Shown here in pieces: positions 32,957 through 63,760 of a DNA stretch of 64,000 nt. The notes beneath the pieces are model-generated. The model was not told the origin of the DNA, ran no database searches, and saw nothing but the letters and a program-made list of their open reading frames with translations. Each line of letters begins with the position of its first letter. The first letter of the stretch is position 1. The translations under genes were made by a program, and so were the position numbers. Source of the stretch: an uncultured virus (IMG/VR IMGVR_UViG_3300021959_000014) (taxonomy: Duplodnaviria > Heunggongvirae > Uroviricota > Caudoviricetes); the IMG/VR virus record IMGVR_UViG_3300021959_000014, one strand, 5' to 3'.

Positions 32957-33442
32957 TTATAAGCTTTGTCTTGCTATTCCTACTCTATCTGCTCTTGTTA
33001 AATGAGTATCTAATACTATTGATATTGAAGAACCAAATCCTGCTGTTCTTTCTACGTTATAGTCGTTGTTTCTTCCATAAAACAGCTCATTTTCTTTAAC
33101 TGTATCTACTTCATAGTAATCTTCATGCCACATTACTATATCTCCTACCTCTGGAACTAATGATATATCTACTAAGTCTTGTTTAAGTAAAGCAAATGAT
33201 GCATCCCTTCCTAAATCAGGTCCAAATTCATCTACATCTACTACCTGATCTCCTCTAGTTATCAAACAATTAAGTTTAACTGGTTGTAGATAAGTTTTTT
33301 GCATAGCTTCTCCGTATATATTAGTATTAGTATCTGCTAAATTCATCTTATAGATCAGAATTTCCTGTTCTATGACATCTTTAAGCAGTTCTCTATTAAT
33401 ATGAACTAGTAGGTTAAAATCTTTCTTACTTCCAAATAGCAT
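32957..33442 (-). CDS. gp14: T4 gp14-like neck/head-completion protein
   Basis: NIYGE, FG, PEVGDIVMW..YYEV pattern; position between gp13- and gp15-like genes. Confidence 0.6.
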   Translation of the reverse strand: MLFGSKKDFNLLVHINRELLKDVIEQEILIYKMNLADTNTNIYGEAMQKTYLQPVKLNCLITRGDQVVDVDEFGPDLGRDASFALLKQDLVDISLVPEVGDIVMWHEDYYEVDTVKENELFYGRNNDYNVERTAGFGSSISIVLDTHLTRADRVGIARQSL

Positions 33443-33741
33443 TACTTCTCTTGTATTGTTTCTTTCGCTGTTTCAATTTTAATTATATTAGGATACTTCT
33501 CCATAGCATTGCTTTTAAACAATTGAAATGCTTCAATTCCTTCTTTTTGAGTAATAACTTTTACTTTAAACGTCATTGTGCTCATTTCTGTAGATTGACC
33601 TGCATTTGTTACTGTTGTTACTCCTGGGAGTGCTCTTAGAAGTTCAGCTAAGTCTTCACTTTCACCGTCTTCGTAAAGGACTCTTATCATCCCTTCGTAG
33701 GTTTTGAACTGTATCTGCTCTAATATCCTTAATAGTTTCAT
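33442..33741 (-). CDS. Small hypothetical protein with MKLLRILE leader (ferredoxin-like beta-alpha-beta pattern)
   Basis: 99 aa, coupled on both sides by TAATG; LRALPGVTTV. Confidence 0.7.
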   Translation of the reverse strand: MKLLRILEQIQFKTYEGMIRVLYEDGESEDLAELLRALPGVTTVTNAGQSTEMSTMTFKVKVITQKEGIEAFQLFKSNAMEKYPNIIKIETAKETIQEK

Positions 33742-34883
33742 TATCCTACATGAATTGTTAGTGGAACTTGAGATAATGTCTGTCTTAGGAAGTCTGCTTC
33801 TTGAGCTTGTGCTTCCATTTGAGAACCTCTTGATGCTTCTTCTAACATTTCTCTTAAATTAAGAAGTAGTTTGTCTTTTTCGTTTCTTGCATCTGTTAAC
33901 AAATCTGCTTGATTAAGTGTTGCTTCAGCACCAGGTACTGGTACCGTTGCGTATTTTCCTCTTATGTATCCTAGCAATTCTTTAGCTAAGGCTAATGTGT
34001 ATTGGAATATCCACTGTCTACCCACACTATTAATATGTGTGTATGTTGGGTTTTCATATGGTACTTCTGATACAGTTGTTATAAGGTTAACTGAGTTATT
34101 AAAGTTAACTGCTTCTTTATCTGTATTTTTATAGTACTCAAAGAATAGCTTTCCAGCTGTTTGAGGTATAGGGAATAGTTTTAACTTGTTATTCACTAAT
34201 TCAAATGTAAATGTAGATCTTCTAATTTGATCATTAAATTCTATTGCTTGCATCTTCATAACGTCGTATGATGCTGGCATTAACATAAAGTTTATACCTG
34301 GGCTGAATTGTCCAAATCCAAATGAGTCCATTAGTGACTGTATTCCTGTCCCTGTTCCTGCATAAGGGTCAAAGTACCTTGTTATTGCTGGTGGTGCTTC
34401 ATAAAATACTCTTCTAATTTCTATTCCATCTGTTATTCCTTTTTCAGACGCCCATAAATCTAAATCGTATTCTTGTACTGAGCCGGTTAATTCTACTGAG
34501 CCAGAATATTTAGTTACATTTCCTCCTACTCCTGCTTCTGTACCGTAGTTCTTAGCTATGGTTACAAAACGAGTTATAGTCGGTTCAACTAATTGATTAT
34601 TTAATGAACTACCGGTAGAAGCCCCTTCTAAGTTTAAGTAATTTTCTCTAATTTTAAATTGAAAAACTTCATTCCCGTAGACAGTTACAGCTTCTTCAAA
34701 GCAAGCGTAAAAAGATCCTGATTGTAGTTCAACATCCATTAACGGGTACCCTAGTCTTTGAGCACAAAATCTTGCTACTTTATCAGCATCAGTACTAAAG
34801 TCCGAGTCACTGTCGTAAAATCCGAATGGTGTTTGGCCAGAACCAAATGTAGATGTTCCTGCCCATATAGATATATTACTCAT
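33741..34883 (-). CDS. gp13: T4 gp13-like neck protein
   Basis: RLGYPLMDVEL at the N-terminus and WIFQYTLALAKELLGYIRGKY..VP.PG....LN..LL signature. Confidence 0.8.
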   Translation of the reverse strand: MSNISIWAGTSTFGSGQTPFGFYDSDSDFSTDADKVARFCAQRLGYPLMDVELQSGSFYACFEEAVTVYGNEVFQFKIRENYLNLEGASTGSSLNNQLVEPTITRFVTIAKNYGTEAGVGGNVTKYSGSVELTGSVQEYDLDLWASEKGITDGIEIRRVFYEAPPAITRYFDPYAGTGTGIQSLMDSFGFGQFSPGINFMLMPASYDVMKMQAIEFNDQIRRSTFTFELVNNKLKLFPIPQTAGKLFFEYYKNTDKEAVNFNNSVNLITTVSEVPYENPTYTHINSVGRQWIFQYTLALAKELLGYIRGKYATVPVPGAEATLNQADLLTDARNEKDKLLLNLREMLEEASRGSQMEAQAQEADFLRQTLSQVPLTIHVG

Positions 34884-34898
34884 AGTTACAGTTTATAT

Positions 34899-34906
34899 AT
34901 AAATAG
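34899..34906 (-). promoter_or_regulatory. Putative late promoter CTATTTAT
   Basis: About 16 nt upstream of the neck gene ATG. Confidence 0.6.
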
Positions 34907-34909
34907 TGA

Positions 34910-35596: not shown

Positions 35597-35622
35597 TTAT
35601 TAAAACGTTTTAATTTATACTA

Positions 35623-35630: not shown

Positions 35631-35633
35631 TAC

Positions 35634-35682: not shown

Positions 35683-37287
35683 CTAGATAGTAGCTAATCC
35701 ACTAACGTGTACTTTACCGTAGAATTCTGGTCTGATCATTTTCTTCGCGTAACGAGTCATGATACCTTTTCTTGGTGTGAAAGATACTGGATCGTATACT
35801 AGAGGAGTCATGATTAATGGTACATAAGGAGCATATACAGCACCGCTTTCTAAGAACTGACCACCTCTAAATCCACAAAGGATAGTGTTTTCAGTCATAT
35901 AAGGGTTTTTGTATACCTTAAATCTACCGTTTAATTGACCTACTTTCTGTACTCCGAAAGCAAATTCTGCTGAGTCACCATCTGTATTAGCAGCATATCC
36001 TGGAATTGATTCTAAGATTGTAGCTACTGTTGGAGAACATACTAGGAAGTTTGCACCACCTCTTAATGTTTTTTGGTGAATCTTGTTAGATACTTTTTGG
36101 ATTTTAGTTCCTAAAGTTTGGAACCATTGTCCTTGAGTATTGTAGAAGTCTGATCCAGCATCTGCCCAAGCAGTACCGTTCCATACTCTGTTGTTTTGTG
36201 CAGACCATCTTTCAGTAGTAGCTGCACCACTGATCAACATGTCTAAGATCTCTAGATCAATTTCCATTGAGATGTACTCACTCAATAAAGAAGTAAGTTC
36301 TGCCTCAGCGTCAATTGAATGATAAGCATTAAGATCCTGAGCAAACTCTGGAGTCCATTGTGCTTTCAATTTTCTAGTTTTAGCAACTACTGCTTCAGAT
36401 TTCAACTCTACGTTGATTTCTGGAATAGCTAATGAAGAAACTGCTCCTGCTGCAGGTGCTGATGAATCTTCAAAGTCACCTCTTGAATTGTCTGCTGGTT
36501 GTGCGTGATAGTTAACTGATGCAGAGAATGGAGAAACTAAAGTTTTTCCAGCTGGTGCATCTTCTACTACGAATGTTACATCTGTTCCGTCAAACTTAGT
36601 AAGTTCTGGGTTAAGTGTAATATCTACTGAAGAAGATAAAAGTCTAAATGCTCTTACACCTTCTGCGTCAAATCCTGGTATAGTTGCTGCTGCAACTGTT
36701 ACTTTTCTGTAGTTCGCTGGATCTTTAGCATCATCGTAATCGATAAGTGCTTCAGTAGCTGAACCAGTTACTTGAGCGTCTGCTGCTCCAGTTAACGCTT
36801 TAATAGAGTATCCGAATTGACCTGCTCCGTAAAGTCCGTCTGCAGCATCAACATCTTTTGCCATTTTTGTTCCAGCTTCAGTCACGTTACCGTGCATGTT
36901 GTCGCCGTCTGCTCTACCGATTGAATCAGCAGAACCGTATTTAAAGTCTAAGTAAAATACTAGACCTGAAGGTAAGTTCATTGGTTGAACTGATACAAAG
37001 TCTTTTGCAGAGATTTGAGCGAATACCTTACGTACTAAAGGTAAAGCTACTCCAGCCCACTGCTCATTACCTGAAGCAGTTGCACCGATTGCACCTGTAC
37101 CTGTAGATGATTGTTCTGCTACGATTTGCTTAGCTTGATTTTCTAACATCATCGACATGTTTGCCGAATCTTTAGAGTTCAATCCTTCTAGCAATCCAGA
37201 AGCAGCCCATTTGTCAGCTAAACGTGATGCATCAGCAGCGAGTGCTTTGTATCCGTTAGCGCTTTCTAAAAGAGAATTAATTTCCAT
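35683..37287 (-). CDS. gp23: Major capsid protein, T4 gp23-like
   Basis: LPLVRKVF, VQPM..PSGLVFYL, AKTRKLKAQWTPEFAQDL.AYH.IDAEAEL, YAPYVPL, FTPRKGIMTRY. Confidence 0.97.
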   Translation of the reverse strand: MEINSLLESANGYKALAADASRLADKWAASGLLEGLNSKDSANMSMMLENQAKQIVAEQSSTGTGAIGATASGNEQWAGVALPLVRKVFAQISAKDFVSVQPMNLPSGLVFYLDFKYGSADSIGRADGDNMHGNVTEAGTKMAKDVDAADGLYGAGQFGYSIKALTGAADAQVTGSATEALIDYDDAKDPANYRKVTVAAATIPGFDAEGVRAFRLLSSSVDITLNPELTKFDGTDVTFVVEDAPAGKTLVSPFSASVNYHAQPADNSRGDFEDSSAPAAGAVSSLAIPEINVELKSEAVVAKTRKLKAQWTPEFAQDLNAYHSIDAEAELTSLLSEYISMEIDLEILDMLISGAATTERWSAQNNRVWNGTAWADAGSDFYNTQGQWFQTLGTKIQKVSNKIHQKTLRGGANFLVCSPTVATILESIPGYAANTDGDSAEFAFGVQKVGQLNGRFKVYKNPYMTENTILCGFRGGQFLESGAVYAPYVPLIMTPLVYDPVSFTPRKGIMTRYAKKMIRPEFYGKVHVSGLATI

Positions 37288-37322: not shown

Positions 37323-38357
37323 TTAGTTTGTTATAATACCTGCTAACTTTTGCATTCTTCTAACTGCATCAGATACTTCGCTAATAACTTCTGGCTTACT
37401 TGCAGTAGTTCCAGTAGCTTTACTTGCCATACCTAATTTTGATTCTTTAATAGTAGTAGATGGTTTTTTAACTACAATACTATCAGAAACAGTTTCAAAT
37501 ACTAATTTAACTTCTTTTACTGTTTCGGCTTTGTCGAAAGCAGCGATTATGTTAACTTTCTGTGATTCGTTAAGGTTATTTGCCTTAAACACTTTATTCA
37601 CATACATTAACTTAGCATTAAGAAGGTTTACTTCTTGAAGTTGACTTTGTAAAGTTCCAATAGTCGATAAAGCTTCGTTTAACTCAGAGTCATCTTCGTT
37701 AACTTCTTCTTCTACACCTTCCTCGTGAGGAGTGTTACAGTGTGCTTCTTCTACTTCTTCTTCTTCTAGTGTTTCTTCATTAGTAGCTTCTAGTTCTGCT
37801 AATAATTCATCTAGATCAATTTCTTCTTCAGATCCTGCAGCAGCGATGTCATCCATCTCTTCTCCAGCGTCCATGTCAGCATTGTCTAATTCTTCTGCAC
37901 CATCTCCCATTTCTTGAGAAATAATGTCACGAATAAGATTTTTTAAGTCATCGACTTCCATGTCTTTAACTTCTACCTCTTCTTCGTCTTCGATTGCGTC
38001 GTCTTCAGATTCTTCTGAATCATCCTCAGCATCGTCAGCTTCTTCTTCAGCTTCTTCCATTTTTTTGTAGTCGCCTTCTGCAACGTCTTCTTCTACTTCC
38101 TCAAGTTGATCGTGTGGATTCTCATCATGAGCATCTACATTACCTTGAGCTTCTGCTACTTCTTCTTCTACATCTTCAGATTCGGTAACCACTTCTTCTA
38201 CAGTAGAATCTTCCATCTCTTGTAGTTTAGCAGCTAACATATCTTTTAGGTGAGGAGTTAAAGTCTCTTCTAAAGCTTCTTTAGCGTTGGTTATTGCGGC
38301 TTCTCTAATAGATTTTGCTTCAGCAATAGCTTGCTTGAATAAATCTTTGTTTGCCAT
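37323..38357 (-). CDS. Prohead core scaffold protein (gp22-like)
   Basis: Highly acidic coiled-coil protein directly upstream of the capsid gene; many (L/I/V)xE sites; ends RMQKLAGI. Confidence 0.8.
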   Translation of the reverse strand: MANKDLFKQAIAEAKSIREAAITNAKEALEETLTPHLKDMLAAKLQEMEDSTVEEVVTESEDVEEEVAEAQGNVDAHDENPHDQLEEVEEDVAEGDYKKMEEAEEEADDAEDDSEESEDDAIEDEEEVEVKDMEVDDLKNLIRDIISQEMGDGAEELDNADMDAGEEMDDIAAAGSEEEIDLDELLAELEATNEETLEEEEVEEAHCNTPHEEGVEEEVNEDDSELNEALSTIGTLQSQLQEVNLLNAKLMYVNKVFKANNLNESQKVNIIAAFDKAETVKEVKLVFETVSDSIVVKKPSTTIKESKLGMASKATGTTASKPEVISEVSDAVRRMQKLAGIITN

Positions 38358-38540: not shown

Positions 38541-39086
38541 TTAAGATACTAGATCTGATGCTGCCTGTTTAAGTAGAGAGGTTACTTCCACGCCTTTAAT
38601 TAATGCTTTTGCGGAAAGACCTGCTGCTGCTGCCCATCTAGTAGTTTTAAGAGCTTGTAGAGCTCCTCCTCCTGCTTGACCTGCCATTAAGAAAATTAAG
38701 ATACCGTATACTATTTTAGTTGCTGCTGATTTCTTCTTTTCATCTTTAGTAAACATGCCCACTATACGTTTGATAGGTGCCATAAACGCTGCTTCGTTCT
38801 TATGTGTGAAGTCTTCCCACCATTCAGCACTTTTGAGTATTCCGGGTTTATTATATTTCTTAGATAGCGATTTAGCAATCTTAGCAAGCATATGTGCTAC
38901 TGTGTTAGATAGAAGTATATATCCTATTATACCTACTACTCCAGCGACTTCGTTTGTATCTCCGTCTAATTCACCTTTATGCGGTCTTAGCTCTTTTTCT
39001 ATTGCTTTTGCTATTTGGTCTGCCATTTGCCCCATTCCTGGTTCAGCATTACCTTCTGCTTCTAGAATAATACTTGCTAACTTCAT
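38541..39086 (-). CDS. Hypothetical protein with MKLASIILE leader and hydrophobic Gly/Ala-rich helices
   Basis: 181 aa; VAGVVGIIGYILL and IVYGILIFLMAG segments; coupled to the protease gene. Confidence 0.75.
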   Translation of the reverse strand: MKLASIILEAEGNAEPGMGQMADQIAKAIEKELRPHKGELDGDTNEVAGVVGIIGYILLSNTVAHMLAKIAKSLSKKYNKPGILKSAEWWEDFTHKNEAAFMAPIKRIVGMFTKDEKKKSAATKIVYGILIFLMAGQAGGGALQALKTTRWAAAAGLSAKALIKGVEVTSLLKQAASDLVS

Positions 39087-39664
39087 TAAGCTCTTAGTAT
39101 ATCGTTTAAGATTGCATCCAGCTTAATAAACTTAGATGCCTTACCTTTTCCTTCATTAAGTGAAATAGGATTCATAAATGCTCCATGAGTAGAAGGATTA
39201 GATACAAAATCCCAACATACCAATTCAAAATCATCTTGCACTTCTAATGCTCCTTCATTTGTTTGTTGTACTGAGCCTGTTCCTCTAGATGATATCCCTA
39301 TAGTGTGTCCTGCTTTAATTATTTCTTTTACAATATTACCTGAAGGTGTATTTAGTAGTTCCACACGTCCCATAAGGTCGTTTCCCTTCCACCATAAGTC
39401 TTTTACTATGTGTGAAGCGTTCTTTAGAGAGACAATGGGAGACTCAGGGTGATCTAATTCTCCAAATGCATTACCGTTTGAAACAAATTCAGAGATATAC
39501 TTCTTAGTTTCTCTTTCTAAAATAGCTTTACTATAAGTTCTACCATTTTGATTCTTTGCAGTTGCTCTTTGCATAACTCCTTCTACTTCGTATACTCCAG
39601 GTCTTTCTTTGGATTCTCTTAGAATAGGATTAAATGATGTAACTTCTATAAGTAATTGTGCCAT
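39086..39664 (-). CDS. gp21: Prohead core protease, T4 gp21-like
   Basis: KNQNGRTY, GELDHP, SH, NTPSG.I, GISSRGTGS, DFVSNPS..GAF. Confidence 0.95.
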   Translation of the reverse strand: MAQLLIEVTSFNPILRESKERPGVYEVEGVMQRATAKNQNGRTYSKAILERETKKYISEFVSNGNAFGELDHPESPIVSLKNASHIVKDLWWKGNDLMGRVELLNTPSGNIVKEIIKAGHTIGISSRGTGSVQQTNEGALEVQDDFELVCWDFVSNPSTHGAFMNPISLNEGKGKASKFIKLDAILNDILRA

Positions 39665-39684: not shown

Positions 39685-40311
39685 TTAAAGATTTAAATCA
39701 TCTTTAGATGCTACTTTTATGATTTTATGCATCTCGTTATTTAAATGGTTAACAACATCTTCTGCGTAAAATAAATCGTCCTGTACTAAATCAGTGTAAA
39801 GTTCTTGAAAATAGTTTAAGAATTTAGCTTTTAATTGTTGGTTTAATAAACCTTCGATACGTTCCGCTACTTCTCTATCAACTCTAGCTTCATATATATT
39901 ATCTGATGGTGAGTTTGAAATAGCATTTAGTATATCATCAGCTGTTTCTGGTTGGATCTGTCCGTCATCTAATAATTTAAATATTATTTTTCTAAGAGTT
40001 TCTGTTGATGCTGTCATTTTTAAAGCTTCTTCAACTTCTCCATCTGCAGGATCAATATCTTTTAGTAAGTCAATTGCTCTTGCTATTTTAGGATTTTTAA
40101 GAATATTTTCGTTTTCTTTTTCCGCTAACTTATTTACCAGAGCAATGACTGCAGATGCCATTGTTTGTGGGTTTTTTATCTGGTTTGCAAAGTTATTAAG
40201 TACTGAGTCGGGTATTGTAGGAAGGTTAACTGCTTGTGCTTCTTCTAGCTTGCGTGCTTCTGTTAAACGTCTTTTTTGATTCCAACTATATATGTCAAAG
40301 TTATCTTTCAT
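39685..40311 (-). CDS. Modular hypothetical protein, putative internal head protein
   Basis: MKDNFDI..RLTE|ARKLEE|A leader; further VEE|A and IYE|A junctions. Confidence 0.7.
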   Translation of the reverse strand: MKDNFDIYSWNQKRRLTEARKLEEAQAVNLPTIPDSVLNNFANQIKNPQTMASAVIALVNKLAEKENENILKNPKIARAIDLLKDIDPADGEVEEALKMTASTETLRKIIFKLLDDGQIQPETADDILNAISNSPSDNIYEARVDREVAERIEGLLNQQLKAKFLNYFQELYTDLVQDDLFYAEDVVNHLNNEMHKIIKVASKDDLNL

Positions 40312-42764
40312 TATTTTCTTTTTTTATTTTCTTGTAAAGTTCCATTAACTGTAGGTCTTGAGTATACCGTTTCTTTTTCTACTTCTCCTAGAGGATTTTG
40401 TGTTTCAATATCTTTCTGTGATATCATTTTTACTTTAGGTTGTGTTAGTCCTTTTGTGAATCCACCTTTAATTGCTGGTCTTAAGTCCTTATTAAATGCT
40501 TGCTCTATTGCAGGAGCTAAAAATCCTCCTACTTTTAGACCTTCTTCATTCCTAATATCACCTAAAGTGTCATATACTTTCTGAATCTTACTTCTTGTTT
40601 TATCGTAGTATGCTTCAATATCTGTTACAACATCTTGAAGATTTATAATTGATTGTTTCATTCCTTCATATCCTCCGTATGTTTCAGAGAAATCTGCTAA
40701 TGCATTTGTTGCAGCTTCATTTACTACCCCTTCTTCTAATACCTTAACAATTATAGATTTAATATTTTCTTTAACTACCTTCTCCTTGCCCATTGCTTTT
40801 TTAATAGCAGCATCTTTACTAGCCATATAATCATCTCCATCTACATCTCCATCTCCATCGTGATCTTTACCTTTAGCTTCTTCAAGATTTTCTACCATAA
40901 ATTGAGTTTCTAGGTATGTCAATACATCTTTTTTAGCAAACTCTACCATTCCTGGTTCTGTCATTGGACCCATTTTCCATTCTTCCCAAGCCTTGATTAG
41001 CATATTAACTCCTTTATCAAATAAAGGTCCCATACTCTCAACATATCCTCCAGTTTCGTAGTCGTTTTCAGTTACTACTTTACCTCCTTTAGTCTTTCTT
41101 CTTCTACCTTCGTTAATTGAATCATCTCCATGGAACAGTTGAGACTCTAATCCTGCTAGATTAAAATCATACTTATCAGCAATTGCTATCATCATTTCCA
41201 TAGCAGCATCTTTCTCGCTAACATCTCCATCTGTGGCGATATCTTGAATTCCTTGAACGCATAAATCAAATGCTCCTCGACTTTCCTGTATATCACTATC
41301 CTCTGCTACTACTTTTCTTACCTTATCAGCTCCTTCGTCCATTTCTCCTAAAGTTTTACGTACTGCTTGTCTAAACATCTTTAAGTGATCTAAAGCTCCT
41401 TTTTTATCTCCATCTTGTATGTAGTCTATAGCATTACCTAAATGTCCGTTTTCTCTATGGTAATTTACATCTTCAAAAGAGTCATAAAGTTTTTGCATTT
41501 TATCTAAAGGAGTACTTATTTTAAGTTTAAGCCCTGCTTTTAGCATTCCGTCGTAGTCAAAGTCTGTTGAAAATTTGTCTCCTAATTTATAAATTTTATC
41601 AATTGCTTTCATATCTGTATCTTTACCGTACTTAGCAATCTTTTTCATTTCATCATCAGTCATAGCTTCTGCTACAAATTGTGTTTTGGCTGCTTCAAGA
41701 TCTCCTTTATATAGGTTATCTACTACTTTTTTCCCTAAAATTTCTAAATCGCCGTTAGTTAGAGAATGAGGTCTATTAAAACCCTCTAAATATCCTCTAC
41801 CTATAGCTATTAAAGTTTCATCTGGATTGTCAGTATCTTCAGGCTCTAGTGTTAAATCTTCTGCTTCTTGCATGTAGTCCCCAGGCATTTCGTAATTTAC
41901 TGATAAGAACTCTTGAAAATTATCTAATGCATCTTGAGGTTCTTGATCTCTTGATTCAGGGTGTGTTGCGAAAAAGTCACCTATAATATCATCATCTATT
42001 AGACTTTTTCCTGTGTTGGGGTTAGAGTAGTACTTTATAATAAAATTTGCAATAGATTCTTCTTGATTACTTTCTTTGATATCTTCTACCATTACTAATC
42101 CTATATCTCTATAATCTATTTCTTCTTCTTGTCCATCTAGGTCAACAGCAAATACAGTATCGTCATGCCACATTGCAGCATTATCATCATTATTAGAATT
42201 AGGATTATAAATTATATATTCTTTTCCGTTACCGGTTTGAATACGAGCATCGTCTGCGTCACCTAATTTTTTCAGTAACTTTTCTTTGGTATAGTTTTCT
42301 TTTAAATCAGCTTTTTTCATGCCGTTAAAAGTATCTACTTTATTCTTATCAGTTGGTTCTACCATTTTATCGTGCTTATCAACTTTTGCTGATTCTCCTG
42401 CTAGTATGTTAAGGTAGTGCATTCTATCTTTTTCAAGGTTTTTGATTGCAATTTTCTCTGCTTTATCTTTATCCTCTTTGGTTACAGTAGCAGCCGAATC
42501 TACTCCAGCTTTTTCTAATTCAAAGTCTACCCCTCTTGTTAGGTCCTCTACCGAGTATTGAGATACTGGGCATTCGTACTCTAATGAAGCTTCTTTTTTA
42601 GCTTCAAAAAGAATCCCTTTACTTTTAAGGATTGATACTGTGTCTGGGAATCCGTTAAAGGGAGATAGGAATTGAGATAGCTCTCTCTTAGCATCTTTAA
42701 GGAATTGTTGTTTAGAGAATGTACCCTCTACAACTGCGTTATATTTTTCTTGTATTGTTTTCAT
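40311..42764 (-). CDS. Large modular protein (817 aa), putative protease-processed head polyprotein
   Basis: About 8 unrelated segments joined by LKE, MVE/IKE, MQE, VAE, MDE/VAE/IQE, INE/VTE, MVE/LEE, VKE/LEE/VNE; contains a DHDGDGDVD motif. Confidence 0.75.
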   Translation of the reverse strand: MKTIQEKYNAVVEGTFSKQQFLKDAKRELSQFLSPFNGFPDTVSILKSKGILFEAKKEASLEYECPVSQYSVEDLTRGVDFELEKAGVDSAATVTKEDKDKAEKIAIKNLEKDRMHYLNILAGESAKVDKHDKMVEPTDKNKVDTFNGMKKADLKENYTKEKLLKKLGDADDARIQTGNGKEYIIYNPNSNNDDNAAMWHDDTVFAVDLDGQEEEIDYRDIGLVMVEDIKESNQEESIANFIIKYYSNPNTGKSLIDDDIIGDFFATHPESRDQEPQDALDNFQEFLSVNYEMPGDYMQEAEDLTLEPEDTDNPDETLIAIGRGYLEGFNRPHSLTNGDLEILGKKVVDNLYKGDLEAAKTQFVAEAMTDDEMKKIAKYGKDTDMKAIDKIYKLGDKFSTDFDYDGMLKAGLKLKISTPLDKMQKLYDSFEDVNYHRENGHLGNAIDYIQDGDKKGALDHLKMFRQAVRKTLGEMDEGADKVRKVVAEDSDIQESRGAFDLCVQGIQDIATDGDVSEKDAAMEMMIAIADKYDFNLAGLESQLFHGDDSINEGRRRKTKGGKVVTENDYETGGYVESMGPLFDKGVNMLIKAWEEWKMGPMTEPGMVEFAKKDVLTYLETQFMVENLEEAKGKDHDGDGDVDGDDYMASKDAAIKKAMGKEKVVKENIKSIIVKVLEEGVVNEAATNALADFSETYGGYEGMKQSIINLQDVVTDIEAYYDKTRSKIQKVYDTLGDIRNEEGLKVGGFLAPAIEQAFNKDLRPAIKGGFTKGLTQPKVKMISQKDIETQNPLGEVEKETVYSRPTVNGTLQENKKRK

Positions 42765-42969
42765 CTAAGTAATCAAACATTTTAGTGTTATAAGGTCTTT
42801 TTTTATTTTTAACTTTTTTAAAACCTAGCTTTTCAGCTTGCTTTGTTGCTCTATTATCACCTTTCTTTTTACTAAAGGCAAATGGAGTTTGATACCCTCC
42901 TACTGCTGCTGAGGTGCTAAGTTCTTCTATTACTTCTTTTATAGCTTTTCTTATTGTGCTTTTTTTCAT
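42739..42969 (-). CDS. Small basic protein with leader MKKSTIRKAIKEVIEE
   Basis: 76 aa, ATGA-coupled; GGYQTPFAF motif then a Lys-rich tail. Confidence 0.7.
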   Translation of the reverse strand: MKKSTIRKAIKEVIEELSTSAAVGGYQTPFAFSKKKGDNRATKQAEKLGFKKVKNKKRPYNTKMFDYLDENNTRKI

Positions 42970-43820
42970 ACTGATTTCATCTCATTTACCAAATCATAAT
43001 ATTGCATAAGATTAACAAGGTGGTTATCTGTAATTTTTTCTGTCTTAGTTAAAGTCTTTATTGATTTAACTACTTCCTCTAATTTTATCCTTACTACTTC
43101 GTCCTTTACTTTAGAAGATAGTTCACTAATAAGCTCTTTAATTTTTACTATCTCTTCATTAACTATGTTTCTAAGTCTAGTAGTTGAGTCAACTGAGGTT
43201 ATAAACTCTTTAAGTATGTATTTCTGTTCTGGTAGTAAATCTTTATAGTTGGAATTAAATTTCTCTAAAAGAATTTTATATGTAAGTAGTCTTAAATCCT
43301 TATCGTATTTAGCATACTCTTCAATAAGTGTATCTTTTACTGCATCTTTATCTACTTTAGAAGAAGTTAGGTGCTCTAGAATAGTAAGTTTATTATTAAT
43401 TAAAAATTCTGGTGCAACTAATGTGCTAGAATTTTGTGCTTCTAATAAACAGTACATAGCTGCTAGTGCTTTATAATCTCTAACTTGTATACCGAAGAAC
43501 TCTTCAATATTATAATGTTTCTTAACTTCTGAGATTAATCTATACTTCTGTTCTTTTAGTGCCTTTTGATTTAGCTTTCTAGAAATTTCAGTGATAGTTG
43601 ATAAAACTGTTTCAGCTTTTACTTCAACTAAATTAGTATTTTTAAGTATATACTCATAAAGTTTCAATTCTTTGGCTAGTGTAGAGCTACCTGCAAAAAA
43701 CTCTTTGAGTATACCTAAAGCTGGTGATTCACTTTTTGACAAAGTGTCTGCTGCTATCTGCTTTACTAATAGTTCGTAAATCAGGCCGGTATTTTTAAAC
43801 TTTGAATGTTTTATCTTCAT
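42966..43820 (-). CDS. Helical protein downstream of the portal (probable prohead core component)
   Basis: 284-aa all-helical ORF with its own TATTTAT motif, located between portal and protease; function by synteny only. Confidence 0.7.
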   Translation of the reverse strand: MKIKHSKFKNTGLIYELLVKQIAADTLSKSESPALGILKEFFAGSSTLAKELKLYEYILKNTNLVEVKAETVLSTITEISRKLNQKALKEQKYRLISEVKKHYNIEEFFGIQVRDYKALAAMYCLLEAQNSSTLVAPEFLINNKLTILEHLTSSKVDKDAVKDTLIEEYAKYDKDLRLLTYKILLEKFNSNYKDLLPEQKYILKEFITSVDSTTRLRNIVNEEIVKIKELISELSSKVKDEVVRIKLEEVVKSIKTLTKTEKITDNHLVNLMQYYDLVNEMKSV

Positions 43821-48775: not shown

Positions 48776-49138
48776 CTATGCTTTTTCTCCTCCTGAGATT
48801 TCTTCATTCCAAGCTTTCATCCAGTCGTTAACAAATTGTTCTAATTCTTGACCTTCAAGTTCAACAACGTATTTACCTATTCTATGTCCTTCGTCTTTAG
48901 CTTGTTCTTTATTTAACTCGGCAGCATTTTTATAGTTCTTCAGTGAGTAAGGTTCAGGGATCTGGTAGCCTGCTTTAACTTGCAGTTTGTAAGATTCGTA
49001 CCCGTTATCGCTATAATTTTTACCTCCTTTATCAAGGTCCGGTACTAGATCTAACGCTTCTTCATCACTATGATCTTGGTTTTCAATAACTGTTTTTTTA
49101 TTTTCAGCTAAAAATTTTCTTAAGTCAAAATTGTCCAT
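48776..49138 (-). CDS. Small protein with MDNFDLRKFLAE leader
   Basis: 120 aa; leader resembles that of 39685..40311. Confidence 0.7.
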   Translation of the reverse strand: MDNFDLRKFLAENKKTVIENQDHSDEEALDLVPDLDKGGKNYSDNGYESYKLQVKAGYQIPEPYSLKNYKNAAELNKEQAKDEGHRIGKYVVELEGQELEQFVNDWMKAWNEEISGGEKA

Positions 49139-56629: not shown

Positions 56630-58198
56630 CTATATAGTGTAAACCGGTGTAGATGTTTTGAAGTCTTTCTTTCTCATTATAGTCTTTGCGTACATATCTA
56701 TACCATCATCTGTAACATCAATTGCAAAAGGAACGTTAATATCATTGTTGAAATCTTTTACTACTGCGTTAATATCCGTATCTAATCTTGAAAGAGGTTT
56801 ACCATGTTTTCTATGTAACCTCTTAAACATACCAATTAGTTCTGGTACTGTTATTGTTTTACCGTTCCGGTCATCGTTAGCTCTGTCCAAAAAGTGTTTT
56901 GTAAACTCTATATCTATCCCTAACTTTATAAAAAGTTTATCTGCGTATTTTTCTATTGCGTTTAATTCTGTTTTTGTAATATTTTCACCTACAATTGATT
57001 CCTTTTTAGTCTTTTCTAAAGAGTCTCCTGCTTTTTTAGCAGCTTTATACGCTTTTGAGTTTTTATGAGAAGCTTTCTTTCCTTTCTTTTTCTTAGCATT
57101 AATATTAGCCCAGAGACCTTCTTCTAAACCTTTTAAACTATCCTCCCAGTTACGGAAAGTTATGTTGCCTAATAGGTACGCTTCTTTTTCTATCTCCATT
57201 AAGTACTCATCTTCATTTGTATTTGAAGTACCTATACGCCCTAACCTACCTTCTATGTTCTGAATATGGTGAATCATTTCGTGAGCAAAAGATCTAACGA
57301 TATCTTTATCGTGTCTTCCTTCTGCGAAAAGTACTATCTCTTTTAATGATGGACTGTAATATGCAGTTCTGCCGAAAAAGTTACTTGCTTCTATTGGGTC
57401 CCTTTTAATTTTTATTTCCGGTAAAGGTAATATGTTCATTTTACGGTCTAACATATATTCAGTCAAAGATGTTATATAATCTTTTAATTCTAGTTTCTTA
57501 CCTGCTTCTTCATTTATTTCTACCTCTAATTGTTCTACTTCGTTATTTTCGTTAAGAGCAAAATATTCATCTATAATTCCGCTGAGACTTGAGCTTATTA
57601 CTTCTGCTACTATTTTATCTTTCAAACCTGTAAGTATTGATAGTATTTCTTCTCTAGATAACTCTTTAGGGAAAAAATCTAAAATCTTATCTAAGTTACC
57701 CGATAGTATATTGTTTCTAAAATCTGTTGCTCTAATTGTTGACCCAGGTTTTGCTGCGAGTGCTAATCCTTTAACATTGGGAGCGTTTTTATAAGTAGTA
57801 ACTCTCCTTAAATCTACAAAATCTTTCTCACCTCTTATTCCTGTTACTGATGCGAATTCTTGTTCAGGGTTAGCTTGTGCATAATCTTTGGCTGCAAACA
57901 TTGGGTTGCTCCCTCCGTCTTTTATCTCAACATTACCTAAGTATTTAGCATAAGTATTCCATATAGACATTGATTCATCTTTAGATATACCGTTTCTCTC
58001 ACCTGCTCCTACGAAAACTATAACCTTGTCTATATTCGGTTTTTCACCGTTGCTGCCACCTAGAAGTGAAGCACCAGTTTCTTTGTAATTATCTTTATTA
58101 TATATTGAACCGTTATATGAGCCGTCTAATAATGACTTTACTACGTTGTAATGTCCTCTATGAGGAGGTTTATATGCGCCTGGGTATAATGCTATCAT
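56630..58198 (-). CDS. Multidomain protein: HxGH nucleotidyltransferase-like + zincin HExxH + basic peptide + C-terminal FTKHFLDR domain
   Basis: PGAYKPPHRGH and RATDFR (Rossmann NTase); FAHEMIHHIQ..EKEAY (zincin); GLWANINAKKKKG; IEFTKHFLDR. Confidence 0.8.
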   Translation of the reverse strand: MIALYPGAYKPPHRGHYNVVKSLLDGSYNGSIYNKDNYKETGASLLGGSNGEKPNIDKVIVFVGAGERNGISKDESMSIWNTYAKYLGNVEIKDGGSNPMFAAKDYAQANPEQEFASVTGIRGEKDFVDLRRVTTYKNAPNVKGLALAAKPGSTIRATDFRNNILSGNLDKILDFFPKELSREEILSILTGLKDKIVAEVISSSLSGIIDEYFALNENNEVEQLEVEINEEAGKKLELKDYITSLTEYMLDRKMNILPLPEIKIKRDPIEASNFFGRTAYYSPSLKEIVLFAEGRHDKDIVRSFAHEMIHHIQNIEGRLGRIGTSNTNEDEYLMEIEKEAYLLGNITFRNWEDSLKGLEEGLWANINAKKKKGKKASHKNSKAYKAAKKAGDSLEKTKKESIVGENITKTELNAIEKYADKLFIKLGIDIEFTKHFLDRANDDRNGKTITVPELIGMFKRLHRKHGKPLSRLDTDINAVVKDFNNDINVPFAIDVTDDGIDMYAKTIMRKKDFKTSTPVYTI

Positions 58199-59136
58199 GC
58201 TAAAAATGATTGTACTTTAGAGTCTATTTCTCCTACTGAGGAGTGATTTAATTTTTCTTGAAATGTTGGATTGTATATCATATCTACAATATTATCTAGA
58301 ACTTCATCTGCTTTTCCTTTTCTTTTTATATTGCTGTCTCTATACTTTTGAACTGCTGCTTTAAGCTTATCCTGTCCTGGGCCTGCTCCGTTCTTTCTGT
58401 AAGCTTTTAGAAATGCAGTTTTAATTGCTTTGTCTTCTGATCTATTTTCTTTATCCCAATCTATACTACCAACATCTTTTATAAATTGTTGCTCTTCTTC
58501 AGGTGTCATCTCTACTGGTACAAAGAAGGAAGAGCCGCCGACATTATTATCTTGATTAAATTTCTCTAAATAATCTTTTACTCCACTTAAGCCACTTTTA
58601 GCAGCTTTATCAAATCCTTCAACTTCTTTTTTATATTTACCGCCTCTATCACTTACAAAGATAGATAAGTTACCTTTTAACTGTCTGTTAAAGTCTTCTA
58701 TTTTAGTATACACATTTCTCCAGGTAGCAAATACAGAATCGCCAGGAATATTTCTTTCCCTAGCCATAAAGTTAGAAACGTAAGAAATCATAGGGTGAGC
58801 ATACACCATAACCATATAGACCTGGTAGCCTGTTGCAAGTAATTTATCTAGATTTTTTTGGAAGCCTGCTCCGGATGCAGTAGTATCCCAAACAAAGCTA
58901 GTTTTTTCTTCTGCTGCTGCCATTGCGTCTTTGGACGTTTGATTGGCTGCTGGTCCTAGTTTGTTGTAATACGGGTGGTCTTTGTCCTCCACGTACTTGT
59001 CTGGGTTGAATTGTACTAGGCTGTCTAGTCCTAATTGGTTGAGTAGGTACGTTTTCCCTGATCCTGCTCCTCCCGCCATTATTATTGCTTTGGGTGCGGA
59101 TCTGTCCTCTAGTATTAGTGTTGATAATTTTATCAT
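58195..59136 (-). CDS. P-loop kinase (zeta-toxin/AAA_33-like) with MIKLSTLILE leader
   Basis: AIIMAGGAGSGKT Walker A, FNPDKY, FVWDTT, R.R.IP lid motif. Confidence 0.85.
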   Translation of the reverse strand: MIKLSTLILEDRSAPKAIIMAGGAGSGKTYLLNQLGLDSLVQFNPDKYVEDKDHPYYNKLGPAANQTSKDAMAAAEEKTSFVWDTTASGAGFQKNLDKLLATGYQVYMVMVYAHPMISYVSNFMARERNIPGDSVFATWRNVYTKIEDFNRQLKGNLSIFVSDRGGKYKKEVEGFDKAAKSGLSGVKDYLEKFNQDNNVGGSSFFVPVEMTPEEEQQFIKDVGSIDWDKENRSEDKAIKTAFLKAYRKNGAGPGQDKLKAAVQKYRDSNIKRKGKADEVLDNIVDMIYNPTFQEKLNHSSVGEIDSKVQSFLA

Positions 59137-61440: not shown

Positions 61441-61465
61441 GTAGTTGTCCGTAACTATTATCTTA

Positions 61466-61496
61466 TAATATAAGAAAAATAATTCTAAATATCAAC
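61466..61496 (-). promoter_or_regulatory. Putative early/middle promoter GTTG-N17-TCTTATATTA
   Basis: Second copy of the motif, upstream of the primase; the GTTG lies in the last codons of the kinase-like gene. Confidence 0.6.
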
Positions 61497-61913
61497 TAAT
61501 TTCAGTTTATTTTTTTGATTTACCATTACATTTGATGGTCTTATATCTAGTTCTTCTGGGTCGAGTCCCATCCTTTGTGCTTCAGCTTCAGTTGCTTCAA
61601 TCCATTCTTCAGGAATATCTCCTTTAAATTCTCCTAGCACTTCCATTTGAATTATTCCTAACTTTTCATTAATCTCTTCTACATCGTATATAAAAGCAAA
61701 GTTATTTGTTTTTTTACCTTTAAGTATATGTGCATGTTCTAACTCTATTGAATCAGTTGTTACTTTATAAACTCTACCGTTTAGAAGATATGCAGAGCCG
61801 TAATCTCCTGAGCCTAGATACTTCCCTCCAAGTTCTTTTACTTTCTCTACTTCTTTTTCAAACCCGGGATCGTAGTAAAGAATCTCTCCTAATATTACGT
61901 GTGATAGTCTCAT
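61485..61913 (-). CDS. Minimal protein-kinase-like (PKL fold) protein
   Basis: LGSGDYGSAY Gly-loop, VYK, E in helix C, IQME hinge, LDIRPSNVM catalytic loop, terminal LVDI. Confidence 0.75.
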   Translation of the reverse strand: MRLSHVILGEILYYDPGFEKEVEKVKELGGKYLGSGDYGSAYLLNGRVYKVTTDSIELEHAHILKGKKTNNFAFIYDVEEINEKLGIIQMEVLGEFKGDIPEEWIEATEAEAQRMGLDPEELDIRPSNVMVNQKNKLKLVDI

Positions 61914-61918
61914 ATCTT

Positions 61919-62350
61919 TTAATCTAATGAACCATGTTTACCGGAATGCATATCATCTCCAAATTTACGAGCTTGTTTTGTAAGTACACTTATGTAAATT
62001 GGATGGTCGTCAGATCCTTTAGGACCAGTTCCGTAATAGGAGTTAATTCTTATACCTTCTAAATCATCTCCTTTATCCATATGGGCTTTTACTACTTTAC
62101 CGACTGTTGTGATAACATCACTTTTCCAAGAACCTTCCGGTTTAATTGTTTGTGTATCTTTGCTGGTCTTAAAGATGGTTGTATTAGTAGGTATACTTAT
62201 AGATTTTATAGTACTAGGCATTCTATCTATTGCTTTTTTAAAATCTTCTAAAGTATCAGCTGTGCCTAGCCAGTTAACAGAGTATTTTTTTCCGTTTATA
62301 GTTGAAGCGTCTTCTCTAAAGCCTTCGAATATGATATTAGTTAATTTCAT
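61919..62350 (-). CDS. Hypothetical protein with MKLTNIIFE leader
   Basis: 143 aa, ATGA-coupled to the upstream ORF. Confidence 0.7.
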   Translation of the reverse strand: MKLTNIIFEGFREDASTINGKKYSVNWLGTADTLEDFKKAIDRMPSTIKSISIPTNTTIFKTSKDTQTIKPEGSWKSDVITTVGKVVKAHMDKGDDLEGIRINSYYGTGPKGSDDHPIYISVLTKQARKFGDDMHSGKHGSLD

Positions 62351-62622
62351 TTGCGTTCTATTTTAAGGGTTAAGTCTCCTGTGCCTTTTATTAGCCGGTG
62401 GTACACTTCCTTTGGTATAAATAGCTTGTTATCATCTAAAGAAACGGGAAGGTTATTATCAAATTGAAATTGCCAGTCTGTTTTATGCATTGCTACAACA
62501 TACCGATCCTCTCGGTCTTTGTGCCAAACAAATTCATCTTCATCTGTGTTTTGATTGAAGAATCTAATATCACCGTCATCTAAGTACGGTCTACCAATAT
62601 CCTGAGAAGTTTCTTTTTCCAC
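62347..62622 (-). CDS. Small cupin-like protein (start uncertain, GTG)
   Basis: WHKDREDR and FIPKEVYHRL match the two cupin motifs; no in-frame ATG near the 5' end. Confidence 0.65.
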   Translation of the reverse strand: MEKETSQDIGRPYLDDGDIRFFNQNTDEDEFVWHKDREDRYVVAMHKTDWQFQFDNNLPVSLDDNKLFIPKEVYHRLIKGTGDLTLKIERK

Positions 62623-63760
62623 CTAATGATTTCCAATAACGTCCAATATTACAAGCCCAGTATCCTGGTTTTGTTTTGTCTTTTTTAGTTGCACATTTAT
62701 GACGTGCAGCAAATGATGATCTTGCTCCAGGTTCATCTATCTTAACATTTAAACCTGTTGTACCTCCGAAAGATACTTTTACAACATTCCCTTTTTTATT
62801 CTTTGTGTATACGTAGAATTTTTTAGAACCTCCACGTTTTGGTTTATTTAGAGGTACATCTTTACCTTTGTATTCTGCTTCATCTAATTGACCTTTTATA
62901 GGTAGTTTTCTTTTAGCTATGGCCAGCAAAGCGCTTCTTAACTGTCTTTTCATATTACCTGCTTCCCATTCCCAGTATCCTATGTCTCCTTCTTTCCAAA
63001 AAATCATGTAGTCCTGATCTCTACCTTGTCCAGCTATTTTAATTTTAAATTCACTGTTTCTTAGTTTATGGAAAGGGAATTTTGATTTACGGTGATCGTC
63101 TTTAGTTACAATATACTCAGGTATAGATTTAGCTTCTTTAACTGGTTCTTTTAGGTTTTTAAACCATTTCATTAACTCATCATAAGACATATCGTATGCT
63201 GGGTGATTATCGGTGTCATCAAAGGCTTTTAATTCTGTAGGTTTTGCCTTTAGTAAGGATCGTATAGCTTTGTACCTATTATTAGTTGCATTTATAGTTT
63301 TAGTTGCATTAAATAAATTGTCTTTAGGCAACTTCCATTTTACATCCCAATCTTTTTGAGAAAATGATTCATCTAATGATTTTTCTAAATCTTTTATTTT
63401 TTGGGTTAAAAAAGGCACATTCCCTCCATCATTTGGGTCGGCTATTCTCGCTTTTAATCTATCAATTGTTTGTTGAATAGTTTCTTCCTTATCATATTTA
63501 GATTCTTCTAACATAGGTAAATCTAATGGTACTTTTATTCCTTCATATACTCCATATAGCCCTATATCTGTTGTTTCTATTAACTTTAAATCTTCTTCGT
63601 TAAGTTGAATTTTACCGTCTCTATAAGCGTCTCTTGCTTCAGCAAATAATTGTATAAAGCTATCGCTAGAATAACGGTAGACATTCTCATATAAAGAGAG
63701 ACTGTTATCTATATGGTACTTAAGTGATGGTTTTCCTATTATTTCAGTTAATCTAATCAT
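62591..63760 (-). CDS. Modular protein (389 aa), putative processed head polyprotein with a basic C-terminal VSFG..RH.C..YW domain
   Basis: MIRLTE leader; junctions LEE|S, LDE|S, VKE|A, LDE|A. Confidence 0.75.
   Translation of the reverse strand: MIRLTEIIGKPSLKYHIDNSLSLYENVYRYSSDSFIQLFAEARDAYRDGKIQLNEEDLKLIETTDIGLYGVYEGIKVPLDLPMLEESKYDKEETIQQTIDRLKARIADPNDGGNVPFLTQKIKDLEKSLDESFSQKDWDVKWKLPKDNLFNATKTINATNNRYKAIRSLLKAKPTELKAFDDTDNHPAYDMSYDELMKWFKNLKEPVKEAKSIPEYIVTKDDHRKSKFPFHKLRNSEFKIKIAGQGRDQDYMIFWKEGDIGYWEWEAGNMKRQLRSALLAIAKRKLPIKGQLDEAEYKGKDVPLNKPKRGGSKKFYVYTKNKKGNVVKVSFGGTTGLNVKIDEPGARSSFAARHKCATKKDKTKPGYWACNIGRYWKSLGGKRNFSGYW

Follow-up and report, generated by a model that had tools for sequence, protein, structure and literature searches.

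Bacteriophage T4 offers the closest described parallel to the system considered here. According to excerpts of a review (PMC9026906), the first ten residues of its internal protein IPIII suffice for packaging, with residues 4 and 7 of the leader acting chiefly in targeting and residues 8 and 10 in processing, which an Asp at position 10 blocks. The same excerpts state that T4 removes 65 residues from its capsid protein gp23, and that core proteins cut at multiple sites are mostly expelled rather than delivered. In the parts of two reviews that treat them, the internal proteins of T-even phages are portrayed as a diverse set common only in their capsid-targeting sequence (CTS), which is suggested to be an evolutionary device for loading varied proteins (PMC3012670, PMC9026906). 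Partial accounts of other phages list 29 cut sites in 19 proteins for 201phi2-1 (PMC9026906) and 14 sites in 9 proteins for SPN3US (PMC10052503). The T4 record itself gives the starts MKTYQEFIAE^A for ipII and ipIII, MELITELFDE^D for alt, MAKINELLRE^S for gp24, MNEPQLLIE^T for gp21 and MLKEQLIAE^A for gp22, where a caret here and below marks the actual or putative cut. Here we describe a related arrangement in an uncultured tailed virus (Caudoviricetes; IMG/VR record IMGVR_UViG_3300021959_000014), in which a conserved N-terminal element of 8–13 residues ending in Glu stands on about 12 to 16 open reading frames (ORFs), many of them beside a T4-like block of head genes. The analysed stretch, hereafter the window, is 64,000 nucleotides long and is the reverse strand of positions 68147–132146 in a 167,696-bp genome. 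These leaders are best read as T4-type capsid-targeting propeptides, whose removal and packaging are predicted, and we consider it fairly probable that the locus encodes a system of T4 type for maturing the prohead and loading its cargo, on a larger scale than in T4 itself.

The leaders are genuine and have firm statistical support. In what follows Phi is a hydrophobic residue, the plain site motif is [LIVM]-x-E, and the extended leader motif is hydrophobic-x-x-hydrophobic-hydrophobic-x-Glu ending at residue 6–16; ORFs are named by window coordinate. An initial annotation of the window, made from its letters alone, had placed short leaders on many otherwise unrelated ORFs, and this proposal holds. 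Within the region that it named, the plain motif ends at residue 6–20 in 21 of 31 ORFs compared with 35 of 157 elsewhere (Fisher p=1.7e-6). Across all 188 ORFs returned by a simple greedy ORF call, 184 of them on one strand, the plain motif is weak at N-termini (40 vs 26.7 expected). The extended motif begins 16 of the 188 where internal windows predict 3.3 (p=2.8e-7), and it is clustered, being present on 11 of 25 ORFs beside the head genes (window 38541–62350) vs 5 of 163 elsewhere (p=7e-8). Comparing the N-terminal 9-mers in an unbiased way recovered the same groups, with 57 similar pairs vs 24–27 at internal offsets. Class A leaders (MKLxxIILE) open ORFs 38541, 49168, 58195, 61919, 61485 and 33442 together with an ORF at 63767 that extends past the window end; class B leaders (M(D/N)NF(D/N)LRKFLxEN) open ORF 48776 and, in variant form, 39685; class C leaders (MK(K/R)SxhxxhhKE) open 42739, 54315 and 53898. 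The full leader is an N-terminal feature in this genome, with six N-terminal matches and two internal ones vs 1.3 expected. Residues 4, 7, 8 and 10 of the T4 leader, counted back from the Glu, become P7, P4, P3 and P1, and in class A leaders these positions are hydrophobic with Glu at P1; since the pattern used for collection fixes these same positions, the agreement with T4 is partly by construction. Beyond the leader, the bodies of the tagged proteins lean basic, in common with the internal proteins of T4, with a median pI of 7.95 vs 5.6 and 6 of 16 above pI 9 vs 18% of the others.

The same element recurs in relatives. IMG/VR holds 437 relatives of the protease, from which the best 80 loci (80–100% protease identity) were taken together with 80 more around the exonuclease gene; with the corresponding locus of Flavobacterium phage vB_FspM_immuto this gave 161 loci, 160 of them IMG/VR contigs. 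Their 1,571 distinct ORFs were clustered into families on residues 26 onward only. Among the 62 families with at least three members, 18 carry the leader, defined as the pattern being N-terminal in at least half of the members, vs 3/62, 0/61, 0/55, 0/54 and 0/51 in internal control windows. Class A leaders stand on 20 families that are otherwise unrelated. Synonymous codons at leader positions match the background (Leu at P7: TTA 68, CTA 67, CTT 14; Glu at P1: GAA 129, GAG 47), and selection therefore acts on the peptide rather than on the DNA. A DNA-level origin of the leaders, such as a promoter or recombination signal in the ORF start, was rejected on the same grounds.

The phage encodes, by profile, a prohead protease of the T4 gp21 family (S77), scoring 124.1 bits against a PF03420 cut-off of 27, whose cleavage activity is predicted. 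The motifs that the initial annotation quoted from the capsid protein, the protease and the scaffold are all present in the sequence. Candidate self-cuts in the protease are PILRE^S after Glu17 and SLNE^G after Glu171; the sites at Glu 17, 114 and 171 occur in 100% of 55 orthologs, and only 38% retain the LIE at Glu7. The capsid protein begins MEINSLLE^S, and its propeptide region holds four Phi-x-E sites, at Glu 8, 34, 49 and 58, that are invariant in 35 orthologs. Its residues 66–118 align with residues 80–132 of T4 gp23, and given the 65 residues lost from gp23 the main maturation cut is more likely to fall after Glu49 or Glu58 than after Glu8. The cut after Glu8 that the initial annotation marked is probably only one of several within a propeptide of 49 or 58 residues. 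In the scaffold-like protein, which contains VTE, LEE, VNE, LNE and IKE, there are 25 Phi-x-E sites vs 16.6 expected, and motif Glu is retained in relatives at 0.87 compared with 0.67 for other Glu (p=5e-4).

In head-core proteins it is specifically hydrophobic-x-Glu that is dense, and not its Asp counterpart. Eight head-core ORFs together hold 99 [LIVM]-x-E vs 61.1 in shuffles (z=5.7), 50 [LIVM]-x-D vs 47.5 (z=0.4), and a depleted 37 vs 51.3 of the giant-phage motif [AGS]-x-E. The same shuffle test gave no Phi-x-E excess in tail and fibre ORFs (67 vs 68.9) or in enzymes (46 vs 38.6), and the rest of the genome stands at 1.15x expectation. Preferential retention of site Glu in relatives was not seen in TerL (terminase), PhoH, the adaptor, the exonuclease or the primase.

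All genes of interest lie on the minus strand of the window. Between portal and protease are unannotated ORFs of 284, 76, 817 and 208 aa, and between protease and capsid protein are ORFs of 181 aa and 344 aa, the latter acidic, so ordered that the window parallels portal-gp67-gp68-gp21-gp22-gp23 of the T4 record. Within the span of each contig, the order portal, core proteins, protease, scaffold and gp23-type capsid protein is found at all 64 loci where a portal ORF and a protease ORF occur together. By capsid protein the nearest cultured phages are vB_FspM_immuto (68.6% identity), Microcystis phage Mel-JY01 (53%) and Rhodothermus phage RM378 (36%), and because the nearest of these infects Flavobacterium the host is probably a flavobacterium. 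In vB_FspM_immuto, leaders of classes B and C are retained, and so is an ortholog of 40311.

Of the proteins in this block, ORF 40311 is well supported, by sequence and model, as a string of modules joined at putative cut sites, and it is a candidate multi-cut substrate. An AlphaFold model (pLDDT 64.8) contains about ten small predicted domains whose intervening linkers hold Phi-x-E sites. Orthologs range from 360 to 978 aa within an otherwise fixed synteny. The protein has 26 sites vs 16.8 expected, and site Glu is retained at 0.84 vs 0.60 for other Glu (p=1e-3), or 0.79 vs 0.53 in a second comparison (p=2.5e-4). Low-confidence linkers, which make up 29% of residues, hold 16 of the 26 sites compared with 13 of 50 other Glu (Fisher 0.003), or 19 of 26 vs 15 of 50 with a tolerance of one residue either side (p=4e-4); in controls, 1 of 20 Phi-x-D and 10 of 27 Phi-x-K fall there. 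A conserved N-terminal module ends at the invariant L154-K-E156, a conserved C-terminal module begins at about residues 640–666, and 6 of 12 mosaic breakpoints lie near sites vs 2.7 expected. Modules are common to the 40311 family and neighbouring ORFs: an 872-aa family member in one relative has the 48776 body fused on at its C-terminal end, and pieces of 39685 are found inside others. A search of the model against BFVD with Foldseek returned only uncharacterised phage proteins (E 3.5e-7 and 4.5e-6). As separate observations, the model also weakly matches, in BFVD, a 1074-aa protein that bears the name prohead core serine protease (E=2.5e-3), and long PHROG profiles match the 192-aa protease, phrog_22848 spanning 991 positions and phrog_207 spanning 519. 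In some phages, then, the protease may be fused with a long core protein.

Both the scaffold and the protease end in tails that resemble the first half of a leader. The scaffold tail, RMQKLAGII(K/TN), follows the site VISE^V at Glu327 (retention 0.95), which splits it from the body; R334–I341 is invariant in relatives and also present in Mel-JY01, and KLAGII is the first half of a class A leader. The scaffold is the sole family among the 62 with the motif at its C-terminus. The protease tail, FIKLDAILNDILRA, lies just past SLNE^G and is conserved as (K/N)LD(S/A)II(N)DILRA in relatives. When 49,418 internal 6-mers are ranked by the leader matrix at P8–P3, the scaffold tail comes 26th and the protease tail 31st (top 0.05–0.06%). 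This likeness suggests that Leu-x-x-Ile-Ile, within the Lys-Leu-x-x-Ile-Ile of the leader's first half, might be an address peptide that docks on a prohead component. Scaffold, protease and cargo would then each bear an address beside a cut site, and maturation would release all three, the protease cutting after the leader Glu to free cargo and remove scaffold as in T4. The head region of Mel-JY01 has only one clear class-A-like leader, and we therefore do not extend the leader claim to that phage. Mel-JY01 also carries in its head module, between the protease and a scaffold-like gene, a gene annotated as ribosomal protein S21 (RpsU; 11185–11412).

Table 1. Head genes, leader-tagged ORFs and long ORFs of the window (coordinates in the window; carets mark putative cuts)
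Position	Strand	Feature	Basis or remark
33442..33741	-	99-aa protein after head-tail adaptor gene, MKLLRILE^Q	relatives MKLxDIILE^I
35683..37287	-	major capsid protein, gp23 family, 534 aa	Pfam PF07068 E=1e-78
37323..38357	-	acidic scaffold-like protein, 344 aa, 21% Glu	position of T4 gp22; 25 Phi-x-E sites
38541..39086	-	181-aa protein, class A leader MKLASIILE^A (39060-39086), two hydrophobic stretches	optional gene just after protease
39086..39664	-	prohead protease, T4 gp21 family / S77, 192 aa	Pfam PF03420 E=6.5e-36; phrog_207 E=3.3e-54
39685..40311	-	208-aa protein, class-B-like leader MKDNFDIYSWNQKRRLTE^A	body pieces occur inside relatives' 40311-family proteins
40311..42764	-	817-aa mosaic head-core protein, N-terminus MKTIQE^KYNAVVE^G	position of T4 gp67/gp68
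42739..42969	-	76-aa basic protein (pI 10.2 past leader), class C leader MKKSTIRKAIKE^VIEE^L	
42966..43820	-	284-aa candidate core protein directly after portal gene	no family match
43850..45739	-	portal protein, gp20 family	Pfam PF07230 E=1.7e-69; starts head-core gene block
45782-47353	-	large terminase	Pfam/PHROGs
47356..48756	-	466-aa protein, start MNLIDKVLLE^W	phrog_1462, function unknown
48776..49138	-	120-aa protein, class B leader MDNFDLRKFLAE^N	sequence
49168..51636	-	822-aa protein, class A leader MHKLEKLILE^S (51607-51636)	
51640..53835	-	731-aa ORF	without leader; not supported as substrate
53898-54098	-	small basic protein, leader MNRNDLKDVILE^V, pI 10.0	
54104-54301	-	small basic protein without leader	
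54315-54995	-	small basic protein, leader MKQSTVRDIVKE^S, pI 9.5	
56630..58198	-	522-aa NMNAT-like / HExxH / phrog_23027 multi-domain enzyme	without leader; not supported as cargo
58195..59136	-	313-aa P-loop kinase, Zeta-toxin fold family, class A leader MIKLSTLILE^D (59107-59136)	Pfam PF06414 E=4e-12
61485-61913	-	small ORF, class-A-like leader MRLSHVILGE^I	weak PHROG match to phage protein kinase, E=2e-4
61919-62350	-	small ORF, class-A-like leader MKLTNIIFE^G	
62591..63760	-	389-aa ORF, start MIRLTE^I	Phi-x-E 13 vs 4.9 (z=4.2)

The tagged ORFs (Table 1) differ in how constantly they keep the leader. It is kept in 45 of 45 distinct relatives of 42739 and in 29 of 31 of 38541, where the residues after the leader vary, and a strict pattern finds it in 17 of 34 relatives of 33442. 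One member of the 38541 family (L010:6972–7559) carries tandem leader elements, a class B leader MENSFNLRKFLSEN followed some 20 residues on by the class-A-like ILKESDE. The clearest enzyme-like cargo candidate, and the sole tagged protein with an enzyme assignment, is ORF 58195, whose leader is present in 42 of 57 distinct relatives and whose Glu10 is retained in 43 of 43 alignments. It scores 46.4 bits against a PF06414 cut-off of 22.3 and has the P-loop GGAGSGKT, and its score against the NCBIfam PezT equivalog, 15.2, is far under the cut-off of 470; it is therefore a member of the fold family and not a PezT ortholog. Its start is overlapped by 239 nt, in another frame, by a 278-aa ORF (58898–59734, minus strand) with a lipoprotein-type signal MKKLLFLLVLLTGCSS and a body rich in Asn, Tyr, Trp and Arg. 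No tagged ORF matched T4 IPI-III or Alt in Pfam or PHROG; such homology is not expected in a system of this kind because the T-even cargo set is itself diverse. The 284-aa ORF 42966 keeps that length wherever it is intact in relatives (a few copies are split or cut by a contig end) while its neighbours vary widely, and 20 of its 29 scored Glu lie in Phi-x-E, vs 9.0 sites expected (z=4.5).

Some further observations concern genes at the edges of this set. The proteins at 54315–54995 and 62591–63760, which end in WPSAYASGAVVRCRRGDIW and GYWACNIGRYW respectively, both close with basic modules containing Cys and Trp. The C-terminal module of 62591 matches phrog_7595 and the one in 54315 overlaps two matches, to phrog_3477 (weak) and to phrog_727, all of unknown function; both modules recur in relatives with varied N-terminal parts. 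Outside the window, at genome positions 2928–4866, adjacent ORFs of 102 and 545 aa look GroES/GroEL-like by their N-termini and sizes. A phage-encoded chaperonin could bear on the folding of capsid and cargo proteins.

The initial annotation went further, seeing cut sites at abrupt changes of composition in five long ORFs (40311, 49168, 51640, 56630 and 62591) and proposing to ask whether modules are gained or lost there among relatives. Mosaic breakpoints backed by at least two alignments do lie near sites, meaning within four residues, in 15 of 34 cases vs 6.7 expected (p=0.001; for Phi-x-D, 3 vs 6.0). This signal comes from 40311 and from 49168 (6 of 10 vs 1.6 expected), and the other three ORFs give 0/2, 1/4 and 2/6. 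The placement of sites between domains is supported by the model of 40311, is weak for 49168, and, judged by how sites are retained, is not supported for 51640, 56630 or 62591. Motif density was rejected as support for all long ORFs because 49168, 51640 and 56630 are not enriched, and internal copies of the full leader were likewise rejected as polyprotein junctions, with two matches against the 1.3–3.4 expected.

ORF 49168 comes nearest to 40311. Its family always begins (M)HKLEKLILE(A/S)Y and then fully diverges, over lengths of 205–978 aa; the present member has a conserved N-terminal module (to Glu147), a variable middle, a conserved C-terminal module (653–751) and an acidic tail. Its sites are not enriched (16 vs 18.1 expected, z=-0.55) and are not preferentially kept in relatives. 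The linker test is not significant in its strict form (5 of 16 vs 22 of 68), and reaches p=0.017 (7 of 15 vs 8 of 52) when one residue of tolerance is allowed and the acidic tail is excluded. The model has no PDB match at E<=0.001 by Foldseek. A polyprotein reading of 49168 is thus weakly supported by sequence and model, and the protein is probably leader-tagged cargo with exchangeable middle modules. The adjacent ORF 51640 has neither site enrichment (z=0.36) nor retention above other Glu in relatives. Proteins of 918–1116 aa in five relatives (L102, L103, L121, L133 and L162) combine modules of 51640 and 49168, and the two genes therefore exchange or fuse segments. In ORF 56630 the conserved N-terminus MIALYPGAYKPPHRGH is the nucleotide-binding strand itself, and the ortholog in immuto carries the annotation NMN adenylyltransferase; sites in 56630 are at background density (z=0.39), and their retention is weakly above that of other Glu (p=0.03). 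Both 51640 and 56630 are probably ordinary cytoplasmic proteins. ORF 62591 is dense in sites, and their retention in relatives is not above that of other Glu. Pfam, PHROGs and NCBIfam searches returned nothing for 40311, 49168 or 51640, and these searches, together with Foldseek on the models of 40311 and 49168, recognised no effector domain in the long ORFs.

Two promoter-like upstream motifs may indicate timing. The 8-mer TATTTATA occurs 45 times, 24 of them no more than 60 nt upstream of a start, and in the form (C/A)TATTTATA it stands 20–40 nt ahead of the structural genes for portal, adaptor, fibres, sheath and tube and of several tagged ORFs. It also precedes 51640, which heads a run of ORFs on the same strand (49168, 48776, 47356, terminase). 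We take the 8-mer to be the reverse complement of the T4 late-promoter core. A second motif, TTTC(G/T)TATATT..AGATATAA, is found 14–55 nt before about 29 early-looking genes, among them the primase at 60517 and a nucleotidase at 55963; downstream of the primase, and on its strand, come the exonuclease, 58195 and the NMNAT-like ORF. The assignment of the two motifs to early and structural classes is itself inferred from sequence.

Several observations weigh against reading the leaders as propeptides of packaged cargo. Control motifs do as well as the plain one at N-termini ([LIVM]xK 47 vs 28.4; [LIVM]xxE 42 vs 23.4), and the evidential weight therefore falls on the extended pattern alone; the leader matrix in turn was drawn from sequences chosen by a pattern that fixes P7, P4, P3 and P1, so that only P8 and P2 are free, contributing Lys and Leu respectively. 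The likeness of the scaffold and protease tails to the leader is a post hoc observation. Breakpoints are enriched near any Glu as well (26 of 34 vs 18.9), and part of their signal therefore comes from acidic linkers, while both structure models are of low overall confidence (pLDDT 64.8 for 40311 and 66.3 for 49168). Sites in the 284-aa ORF 42966 are not significantly better retained than other Glu (0.74 vs 0.64). Among individual candidates, the leader-like start of 47356 may belong to a conserved fold, WSYKTKKGYPDIN coming next in all relatives, and ORF 54995 has a C-terminal membrane anchor; neither is likely to be cargo. ORF 58195 belongs to a run (exonuclease, 58195, NMNAT-like ORF) downstream of a primase whose start has the early-like promoter motif. 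A literature search for virion proteomes of cultured relatives (immuto and Mel-JY01; Far-T4 phages with mass spectrometry) found none.

Other explanations account for these data less well. It is highly improbable that the leaders reflect chance, in that an AT-rich genome with helical N-termini rich in Lys, Leu, Ile and Glu would produce meaningless hydrophobic-x-Glu triplets. Such triplets are indeed only 1.17x more frequent genome-wide than in shuffled sequence (907 vs 774), and the plain motif at N-termini does no better than its controls, but neither the significance and clustering of the extended motif, nor 18 tagged families of 62 where control windows yield 0 to 3, nor the preference for Glu over Asp, nor the codon evidence of peptide selection would follow from composition. 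A real common N-terminal element might instead have a job other than removal by the protease, such as recruiting a GroES/GroEL-like chaperonin, aiding translation start or folding, or attaching proteins to membrane or another assembly, and this we think unlikely. The genome does have a GroES/GroEL-like pair, named from its look only, and the N-terminus of the T4 capsid protein reportedly directs proteins to GroEL, to go by the title of a 2005 study by Snyder and Tarkowski; the tagged ORFs 38541 and 54995 look membrane-bound, and the position of 58195 in a run with an early-like motif is also as this explanation would have it. Yet the leader always ends in a Glu motif that is enriched and kept in the expected protease substrates, it matches leaders that partial accounts of T4 describe as cut, the tagged genes cluster at the head module, and the address half recurs on scaffold and protease beside cut sites.

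That all five long ORFs are multi-effector polyproteins, packaged, cleaved at the motif and injected as separate early effectors, as the initial annotation held, appears to us decidedly improbable. ORF 40311 fits cutting at linkers, breakpoints in 40311 and 49168 lie near sites with modules moving between ORFs in relatives, and in 56630 the two breakpoints with the best support coincide exactly with sites (ALNE^ and GLEE^). But 56630 and 51640 are without a leader, the motif is at background density in three of the five, the sites of 49168, 51640 and 62591 are not preferentially kept, and the two breakpoint sites of 56630 are retained in only 0.30 and 0.29 of relatives. The effector part of the claim is unsupported, no domain of these putative polyproteins being identifiable as an effector by Pfam, PHROGs, NCBIfam or Foldseek, and multi-cut core proteins of T4 are, in the review excerpts cited at the outset, mostly expelled. 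What stands of the proposed plug-in cargo platform is the gp21-family protease, the Phi-x-E richness of the head-core proteins, the T4-type leaders and the apparent string of modules in 40311; the polyprotein reading fails for 51640, 56630 and 62591. Under the enlarged T4-type reading that we prefer, 40311 would be a mosaic core protein in the place of gp67/gp68, cut at its linkers into domain-sized pieces, and its pieces might be either expelled like scaffold fragments or kept in the head and injected.

The suggestion that such loading is undescribed at this scale in tailed phages goes too far, because reviews, in the parts cited above, already describe the diverse CTS set of T-even phages and multi-site cleavage in 201phi2-1 (PMC3012670, PMC9026906). 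A search of the literature on capsid-targeting leaders, polyprotein cargo and marine T4-like phages found only work on T4 and giant phages. The present system, found in an abundant group of uncultured phages, is an enlarged, multi-class form of an already described mechanism, the loading principle itself being known. If the leaders load cargo, abundant uncultured marine phages inject far more proteins than T4 does, and a more changeable assortment of them, which would be a natural place to seek anti-defence or host-takeover factors that act before phage gene expression. The suggested logic of a scaffold-tail address joined to a protease site gives a simple rule, open to testing, by which sequence alone would predict virion cargo, and the pair could also serve for packing foreign proteins into capsids, a use to which the T4 leader has already been put. 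In the 40311 family one would have a clear example of a head protein composed of exchangeable modules joined at protease sites. A bolder version, to which we attach some but rather little probability, is that a widespread marine T4-like clade uses a swappable Leu-x-x-Ile-Ile address, copied from the docking tail of scaffold and protease and combined with a Glu site, to load a large and fast-changing set of cargo (a Zeta-fold kinase, membrane-active and small basic proteins, and mosaic polyproteins cut into about ten products) that is injected with the DNA as the first wave of host-takeover or anti-defence factors.

Set against the T4 CTS and gp21 system, the locus has the same protease family and the same gene neighbourhood of portal, core genes, protease, scaffold and capsid protein, and its leaders of about ten residues, with hydrophobic P7, P4 and P3 and Glu at P1, likewise stand on unrelated proteins, several of them small and basic. 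It differs in extent, with about 12–16 tagged ORFs here and 18 families in the clade compared with the eight T4 proteins considered (without ipI), in having at least three leader classes rather than one, and in a tagged set that includes an 822-aa mosaic, a Zeta-fold kinase and a protein whose hydrophobic stretches look membrane-like. Here the address half also occurs at the C-termini of scaffold and protease, and the system is known from sequence alone. ORFs 42966, 42739, 40311 and 39685 lie between portal and protease as gp67 and gp68 do, and 37323 takes the place of gp22; apart from the small 42739 and 39685, these ORFs share with T4 core proteins a density of conserved cut motifs, and Pfam and PHROG searches detected no similarity to gp22, gp67 or gp68. 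At 817 aa, and 360–978 aa among close relatives, 40311 is a mosaic of folded modules, unlike gp67 and gp68 with their 80 and 141 aa.

The giant phages phiKZ, 201phi2-1 and SPN3US provide a second comparison, in which, as far as the excerpted accounts go, many head proteins have numerous sites where a distant gp21-type protease cleaves after Glu, and propeptides have several redundant sites. Their motif is A/S/G-x-E, whereas here [AGS]-x-E is depleted and Phi-x-E enriched in head-core proteins, and the propeptides described in those accounts are mostly long (111–254 residues) rather than a short common leader.

More distant parallels exist for the address itself. The C-terminal tails of herpesvirus and HK97-type scaffolds and proteases bind the capsid protein, and encapsulins load cargo through short terminal peptides. 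The present locus resembles these in the putative use of one short terminal peptide on scaffold, protease and cargo. It differs in that the putative address is N-terminal on cargo, C-terminal on scaffold and protease, and paired in each case with a Glu-specific cut site.

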